Shown piece by piece: positions 51,760-51,859 of a DNA stretch of 64,000 bases (the first letter of the stretch is position 1; each line of letters begins with the position of its first letter). This DNA comes from Escherichia coli. Lineage in GTDB: Bacteria; Pseudomonadota; Gammaproteobacteria; Enterobacterales; Enterobacteriaceae. Made by a program: the position numbers and the translations under genes. The stretch lies in NCBI RefSeq assembly GCF_051903065.1, contig NZ_CP178438.1; one strand, 5' to 3'. The notes under the pieces were generated by a model. That model did no database searches and was not told the DNA's origin. It saw only the letters and a program-made list of their open reading frames with translations.

Positions 51760-51859
51760 CGGGGTATCTCCTTTATGAGTCATGGTATGAAGATACGCAG
51801 ATTTACTCTTGCTTTAAAATGAATAATATTAAGCCACTTATTCACGAATCGAGAATATT

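Follow-up and report, generated by a model that had tools for sequence, protein, structure and literature searches.

In the classical LysR arrangement, the regulatory site lies at −65, the gene of the regulator is divergent from its target, and the site overlaps the leader of the regulator's own gene, and the LTTR box T-N11-A is known from the CbnR, BenM/CatM, OccR, CysB, and NodD promoters. It was in the divergent region between sad (yneI) and ptrR (yneJ) of Escherichia coli where a YneJ/PtrR site was published as TTCACGAATCGaGAA for ptrR and, in its complement, as TTCTCGATTCGTGAA for yneI (sad), together with the PtrR consensus TTCACnAATnGAGAA obtained by phylogenetic footprinting (Rodionova et al. 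2020, bioRxiv 10.1101/2020.04.27.065417; Sci Rep 2022, PMC9068703). In the same study, purified PtrR bound the 21-bp oligonucleotide gggTTCTCGATTCGTGAAggg in fluorescence polarisation and was dissociated from it by GABA, a 50-bp ChIP-exo region at sad/ptrR was reported to hold the motif, and PtrR was concluded to be a repressor of sad, with sad and glsB up in the ptrR mutants (Rodionova et al., 10.1101/2020.04.27.065417; PMC9068703). We suggest keeping in mind that the PtrR of these assays was refolded and measured at micromolar concentrations in the presence of 10 mM urea (10.1101/2020.04.27.065417; PMC9068703), so that they give only a loose idea of how tightly and how specifically it binds.

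In the parent ChIP-exo survey, the targets of YneJ include both sad and yneJ (Gao et al., NAR 2021, PMC8464067). A second laboratory, which renamed yneJ as pggR, recovered the same motif with MEME, reported ChIP-qPCR enrichment as well as binding in fluorescence polarisation, which glutamine enhanced, and showed that a yneJ mutant in M9-tryptone has lower sad-glsB-yneG mRNA, restored by complementation (Gagarinova et al., Nat Commun 2022, PMC9283627). An evolved strain carrying YneJ E97A over-expressed sad-glsB-yneG. The two laboratories conflict on the direction of the regulation, repressor (Rodionova et al., PMC9068703) versus activator (Gagarinova et al., PMC9283627), and also on the effector, given that GABA releases binding in one case (PMC9068703), whereas Gln, Glu, and putrescine enhance it in the other (PMC9283627). 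The PuuR operator of the puu putrescine-utilisation cluster serves the same pathway, leading from putrescine through GABA to succinate, but it belongs to another regulator family and has another motif. Furthermore, sad has been reported as not regulated by PuuR (Rodionova et al., 10.1101/2020.04.27.065417; PMC9068703).

The window analysed here is a stretch of 64,000 nucleotides of E. coli (RefSeq assembly GCF_051903065.1, contig NZ_CP178438.1), and its coordinates equal those of NC_000913.3 minus 1,562,944 or those of U00096.2 minus 1,560,968. By the RefSeq annotation, sad, encoding succinate-semialdehyde dehydrogenase and being the first gene of sad-glsB-yneG, occupies 50371–51759 on the minus strand, with the Shine-Dalgarno AAGGAG upstream of its ATG at 51759, and is the divergent target of ptrR (yneJ, also pggR), which lies at 51860–52741 on the plus strand and is annotated as "putrescine utilization regulator PtrR". 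The protein carries the Pfam domains HTH_1 at residues 3–62 (E 9e-18, 64.4 bits) and LysR_substrate at residues 85–282 (E 2.5e-46, 158.2 bits), each of which scores well over its curated cut-off. The intergenic region (51760–51859) is 100 bp long with 66% A+T, and the 901 bases around the dyad recur with 100% identity in several E. coli chromosomes of RefSeq, a match to this 901-base query being present in 5,419 of 5,426 complete genomes. On the 3′ side of ptrR, the genes yneK, ydeA, marC, and the marRAB operon (about 52819–57300) follow in the normal E. coli order.

A preliminary description of this DNA had drawn a dyad TATTC-N9-GAATA with a T-N11-A core just 5′ of the yneJ start, and had read it as the expected autoregulatory site of the LysR-type regulator YneJ, which would control the divergent gene sad. 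The sequence TATTCACGAATCGAGAATA is indeed present on the plus strand at 51839–51857, separated by 2 nt from the ptrR ATG at 51860, and the exact pattern occurs once in the 64-kb window against 0.06 occurrences expected by chance. Taken by itself, this geometry is weak evidence: perfect 5+9+5 dyads of any sequence number 93 in the window, or 1.45 per kb, and the 100 bp between sad and ptrR contain nine cases of T-N11-A. The reality of the element was therefore decided from other evidence.

This evidence defines a shorter core, TTCACGAATCGAGAA, at 51841–51855 with its centre at 51848, delimited by identity with the published site and by conservation. It is a 15-bp imperfect palindrome of the LTTR-box type, TTCAC-GAATC-GAGAA, containing TTC-N9-GAA and a T-N11-A formed by T51842 and A51854, and it agrees letter for letter with the published YneJ/PtrR site. 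The consensus TTCACnAATnGAGAA is matched with zero mismatches at 51841–51855 and nowhere else in the 64 kb, and likewise the sole zero-mismatch match of TTCACNNNNNGAGAA in the window is the operator, the other matches needing a mismatch. Set against the E. coli K-12 operator of PtrR/YneJ/PggR, this one has the same core 15-mer, genes, and position, with identity over 51841–51856 and no difference of substance; only the bases before the ptrR ATG change, from GAATGCT-ATG in K-12 to GAATATT-ATG in the window strain. The outermost pair of the dyad as drawn is consequently strain-specific, because ATT replaces the GCT of K-12 at this place. We also noted that this polymorphism at 51857–51859, where the window strain shares ATT with some other Escherichia and K-12 has GCT, alters the spacer between the ptrR Shine-Dalgarno and the start codon. 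A direct repeat, AATGAATAATATTA / AATCGAGAATATTA, was considered as well and judged an E. coli-specific coincidence, since its second copy needs the strain-specific ATT before the ATG.

The conservation of the element was followed in the ptrR loci of 80 species-representative genomes, which together with the window give 81 Enterobacteriaceae sequences from genera that include Escherichia, Citrobacter, Salmonella, Klebsiella, Enterobacter, Kosakonia, and Kluyvera; the upstream alignment is ungapped from about −60 to the ptrR ATG in 77 of the 80 loci. The half-sites TTCA (51841–51844) and AGAA (51852–51855), and with them both bases of the T-N11-A, are identical in 81/81 sequences, C51845 is kept in 79/81 and G51851 in 78/81, while the flanks 51835–51838 and 51856–51859 vary freely. 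With 51848 as the centre, symmetry at distances of 3, 5, 6, and 7 bp is kept in 76, 81, 81, and 81 of the 81 sequences, respectively, and the pair at offset 4 is A/A in all of them. The four outer positions of the dyad as drawn behave differently, being conserved as T in 40/81, A in 65/81, T in 43/81, and A in 38/81, and their pairs are symmetric in only 29/81 (51839/51857) and 32/81 (51840/51856) with no compensatory pattern. The arms of the preliminary description therefore stand only in part, as the inner TTC-N9-GAA within TTCAC-N5-GAGAA is conserved but the full TATTC/GAATA arms are not; the two outermost base pairs on either side fall outside the conserved element, and an extended 19-bp palindrome was rejected for lack of conservation or covariation of these pairs. 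A position-weight matrix built from the 81 sites gives the operator 23.9 bits, and the next 15-mer in the 64-kb window scores 9.3. Some of the invariance of GAGAA may be owed to its role in the ptrR ribosome-binding site.

The genome collection also contained enterobacterial sad-ptrR loci on oddly labelled contigs, namely SMXE01000224.1 (a Caldithrix MAG, PtrR with 98% identity to E. coli; locus L002), CACSKA010000003.1 (Chryseobacterium sp. 18061, 83% identity; locus L034), and a contig of an uncultured Raoultella (85% identity; locus L016), which suggests contamination or mislabelling in the collection.

For the promoter geometry, we took the transcription starts from the supplementary tables of Kim 2012 and Cho 2014 and mapped their U00096.2 coordinates to the window. 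The ptrR start is at 51836 on the plus strand (1612804; 6 reads in Kim 2012 and 66 reads in three conditions in Cho 2014), giving a 24-nt leader, so that the operator occupies +6 to +20 of the ptrR transcript, and its right half overlaps the ptrR Shine-Dalgarno GAG. Two starts on the minus strand serve sad. The proximal one, P1, is at 51783 (1612751; 5 reads, in exponential phase only), also with a 24-nt leader, and the operator centre lies exactly 65 bp away, at −65. The distal one, P2, is at 51901 (1612869; 3 reads in Kim 2012 and 140 reads in four conditions in Cho 2014), inside codon 14 of ptrR, and its 142-nt leader is antisense to the ptrR 5′ end and runs through the operator, which occupies +47 to +61 of this distal transcript. 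No rows for the sad-ptrR region appear among the starts of the Cappable-seq supplement (PMC4782308), nor does the Klebsiella table of starts have an entry for the orthologues KPN_01634 and KPN_01635.

The footprint had pointed to 51783 before the tables of transcription starts were examined. Across the 81 sequences, P1 keeps an A at −11 and a T at −7 in 81/81 and an A at +1 in 79/81, together with a −35 of consensus TTTTCA at a 17-bp spacer from the −10. In the window strain, the P1 core promoter spans 51790–51818 on the minus strand, with the −35 TTTAAA (51818–51813) and the −10 TATCTT (51795–51790). Each hexamer matches four of the six consensus positions, and P1 is thus weak, as expected if it is activator-dependent; a σ70 promoter and terminator scan of 51650–52000 returned nothing at its threshold of 9/12, the promoter hexamers matching 4/6 each. 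The conservation of the P2 promoter is uninformative, because every key base is fixed by ptrR coding. The +1 of P1 is also the first base of an ATG that is in frame with sad and precedes its annotated start by eight codons; this ATG would open an ORF of 470 aa. Outside Escherichia it is not conserved (T at +2 in 35/81, G at +3 in 6/81), so that it more probably falls on the P1 start by chance than marks a leaderless start.

With this geometry, the locus resembles the classical LysR site in having its interrupted T-N11-A dyad centred 65 bp upstream of the target start, a divergent regulator whose own transcript overlaps the operator, and a conserved segment about 21–32 bp on the promoter-proximal side. 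It differs in that the published phenotype of PtrR is mostly target repression, in that the reported effector response is a release from DNA instead of a shift of contacts, and in having a second, stronger sad promoter upstream of the operator, inside ptrR; the PtrR activation site, moreover, is a candidate only. We consider it likely that the classical −65 geometry applies at a real, functional proximal sad promoter.

The promoter-proximal conserved segment belongs to an invariant block, AAAATGAATAATATTAA, that the footprint places at 51816–51832 and that is more conserved than the operator, 51820–51827, 51830, and 51832 being identical in 81/81 sequences. It holds the ptrR −10 TAATAT (51824–51829), which lies at −12 to −7 of the ptrR start at 51836, and at the same time it spans −33 to −49 of P1, the expected place of an LTTR activation binding site. 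The same block was published as a MEME motif, AATATTATTCATTTT, whose binding was not assayed (Gagarinova et al., PMC9283627). The ptrR −10 alone could explain part of the conservation. The second match of the operator matrix is a weak 15-mer at 51809–51823, the best second match in 41 of the 81 sequences, with low scores: E. coli has −6.3 bits, and the highest value among the species listed, in Klebsiella, is 4.7. As an activation site, the block is suggestive only. We put forward AAAATGAATAATATTAA together with the weak dyad at 51809–51823 as a candidate PtrR activation binding site, with PtrR as a dual-mode LysR regulator that would use one operator both to repress its own promoter and the intragenic distal sad promoter and, when effector is present, to activate P1, a proposal that we find possible but to which we give less than an even chance.

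The position of the ChIP-exo signal deserves a separate comment. The supplement of the survey assigns to sad a YneJ peak at 1612960–1612976, with a signal-to-noise of 17.47, the strongest of eight (NAR 2021, PMC8464067). Read as U00096.2 coordinates, which the other rows of the same table fit, this peak falls at 51992–52008 of the window, inside ptrR and about 150 bp from the motif, and so the tabulated position disagrees with the statement that the ChIP-exo region holds the motif. Under the tabulated peak, at 52002–52015, there is a look-alike, TTATTCGCGAGAAT, a shortened TTATTC-GC-GAGAAT. It was rejected as a second site, since it shows no excess of synonymous-site conservation (third-position mean of 1.04 bits versus 0.84 ± 0.44 overall) and both alternatives are common across species at its two-fold codons; as its codons spell FIREN, coding explains the resemblance.

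Several other readings of the element have to be weighed. A chance dyad in an A+T-rich region, conserved only through promoter and ribosome-binding-site constraints, would fit the abundance of such dyads and of T-N11-A given above, and also the fact that GAGAA doubles as the ptrR Shine-Dalgarno. The left half-site, however, has neither a promoter nor a ribosome-binding role, and still TTCAC is kept at the counts reported above, whereas the neighbouring 51835–51838 drift; the matrix score of the operator stands 14.6 bits above the next best in the window, and binding assays and ChIP data have been published. The invariant left half-site and the published binding leave this reading practically excluded. 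Hardly more credible is a hairpin of the palindrome within the 24-nt ptrR leader that would sequester the Shine-Dalgarno GAG and control translation: the dyad is transcribed as bases +4 to +22 of the ptrR mRNA, with a right arm that reaches into the ribosome-binding site, but the predicted fold of −3.9 kcal/mol has z = +1.34, with 188 of 200 shuffles folding at least as well, the variable outer pairs change without compensation, offset 4 is always A/A, and direct protein-DNA binding has been published, all of which makes this reading very improbable.

More serious is the reading of PtrR as a simple effector-released repressor, in which a plain operator would block both the distal transcript of sad and the leader of ptrR, its distance of 65 bp from a minor proximal start would be coincidental, and there would be no activation site. 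It agrees with the rise of sad and glsB in ptrR mutants, with the dissociation of PtrR from the 21-mer by GABA, with the 140 reads of the distal start against 5 of the proximal one, and with the weakness of the second-site matrix match. It does not account for the lowered sad-glsB-yneG mRNA of the yneJ mutant in M9-tryptone and its restoration by complementation, nor for the conservation, in 79–81 of the 81 sequences, of the −11 A, −7 T, and +1 A of a P1 whose start lies exactly 65 bp from the operator centre; the invariance across genera of the block at the activation-site position also speaks against it, though this block holds the ptrR −10 as well. On balance, we regard the simple repressor as a plausible account, though with less than an even chance.

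Our own reading is that the element at 51841–51855 is almost certainly the primary, high-affinity PtrR operator of the sad-ptrR divergent region, and the explanation taken as a whole, with the operator, its geometry, and the proposed regulation, appears to us very probable. A PtrR dimer would recognise the half-sites TTCAC and GAGAA, whose TTC and GAA are nine bases apart. Once bound, it would hinder its own transcription or translation initiation, in a negative autoregulation that fits the operator at +6 to +20 of ptrR and that we infer from position, as has been done in the literature. The bound regulator could also act as a roadblock to the distal sad transcripts, which would account for the reported repression and for its relief when GABA releases PtrR. 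Under inducing conditions, a PtrR tetramer might reach from the operator to the block at −33 to −49 and activate the weak P1, and this would account for the lower sad mRNA of the yneJ mutant on tryptone. This dual model of repression and activation is offered tentatively, at slightly below an even chance.

In summary, the preliminary observation is confirmed with a trimmed core, its interpretation as a YneJ site is supported, and the binding check proposed for it, an EMSA with YneJ, has in effect been anticipated by the published fluorescence polarisation and ChIP. The element is also already known, and finding it again adds nothing new, because the site has been published and RefSeq already gives the regulator its name. 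The added value is the geometry, in which the tables of transcription starts and the 80-species footprint together place the operator at −65 of P1, at +6 to +20 of ptrR, and downstream of the distal sad start. For the cell, this operator ties putrescine/GABA catabolism through sad-glsB-yneG to a local LysR-type regulator, and its geometry provides a testable route to reconcile the reports of repression and of activation of sad; if the candidate activation site is true, a dual-mode PtrR would reconcile the two studies that came to opposite conclusions, "repressor" in one and "activator" in the other.
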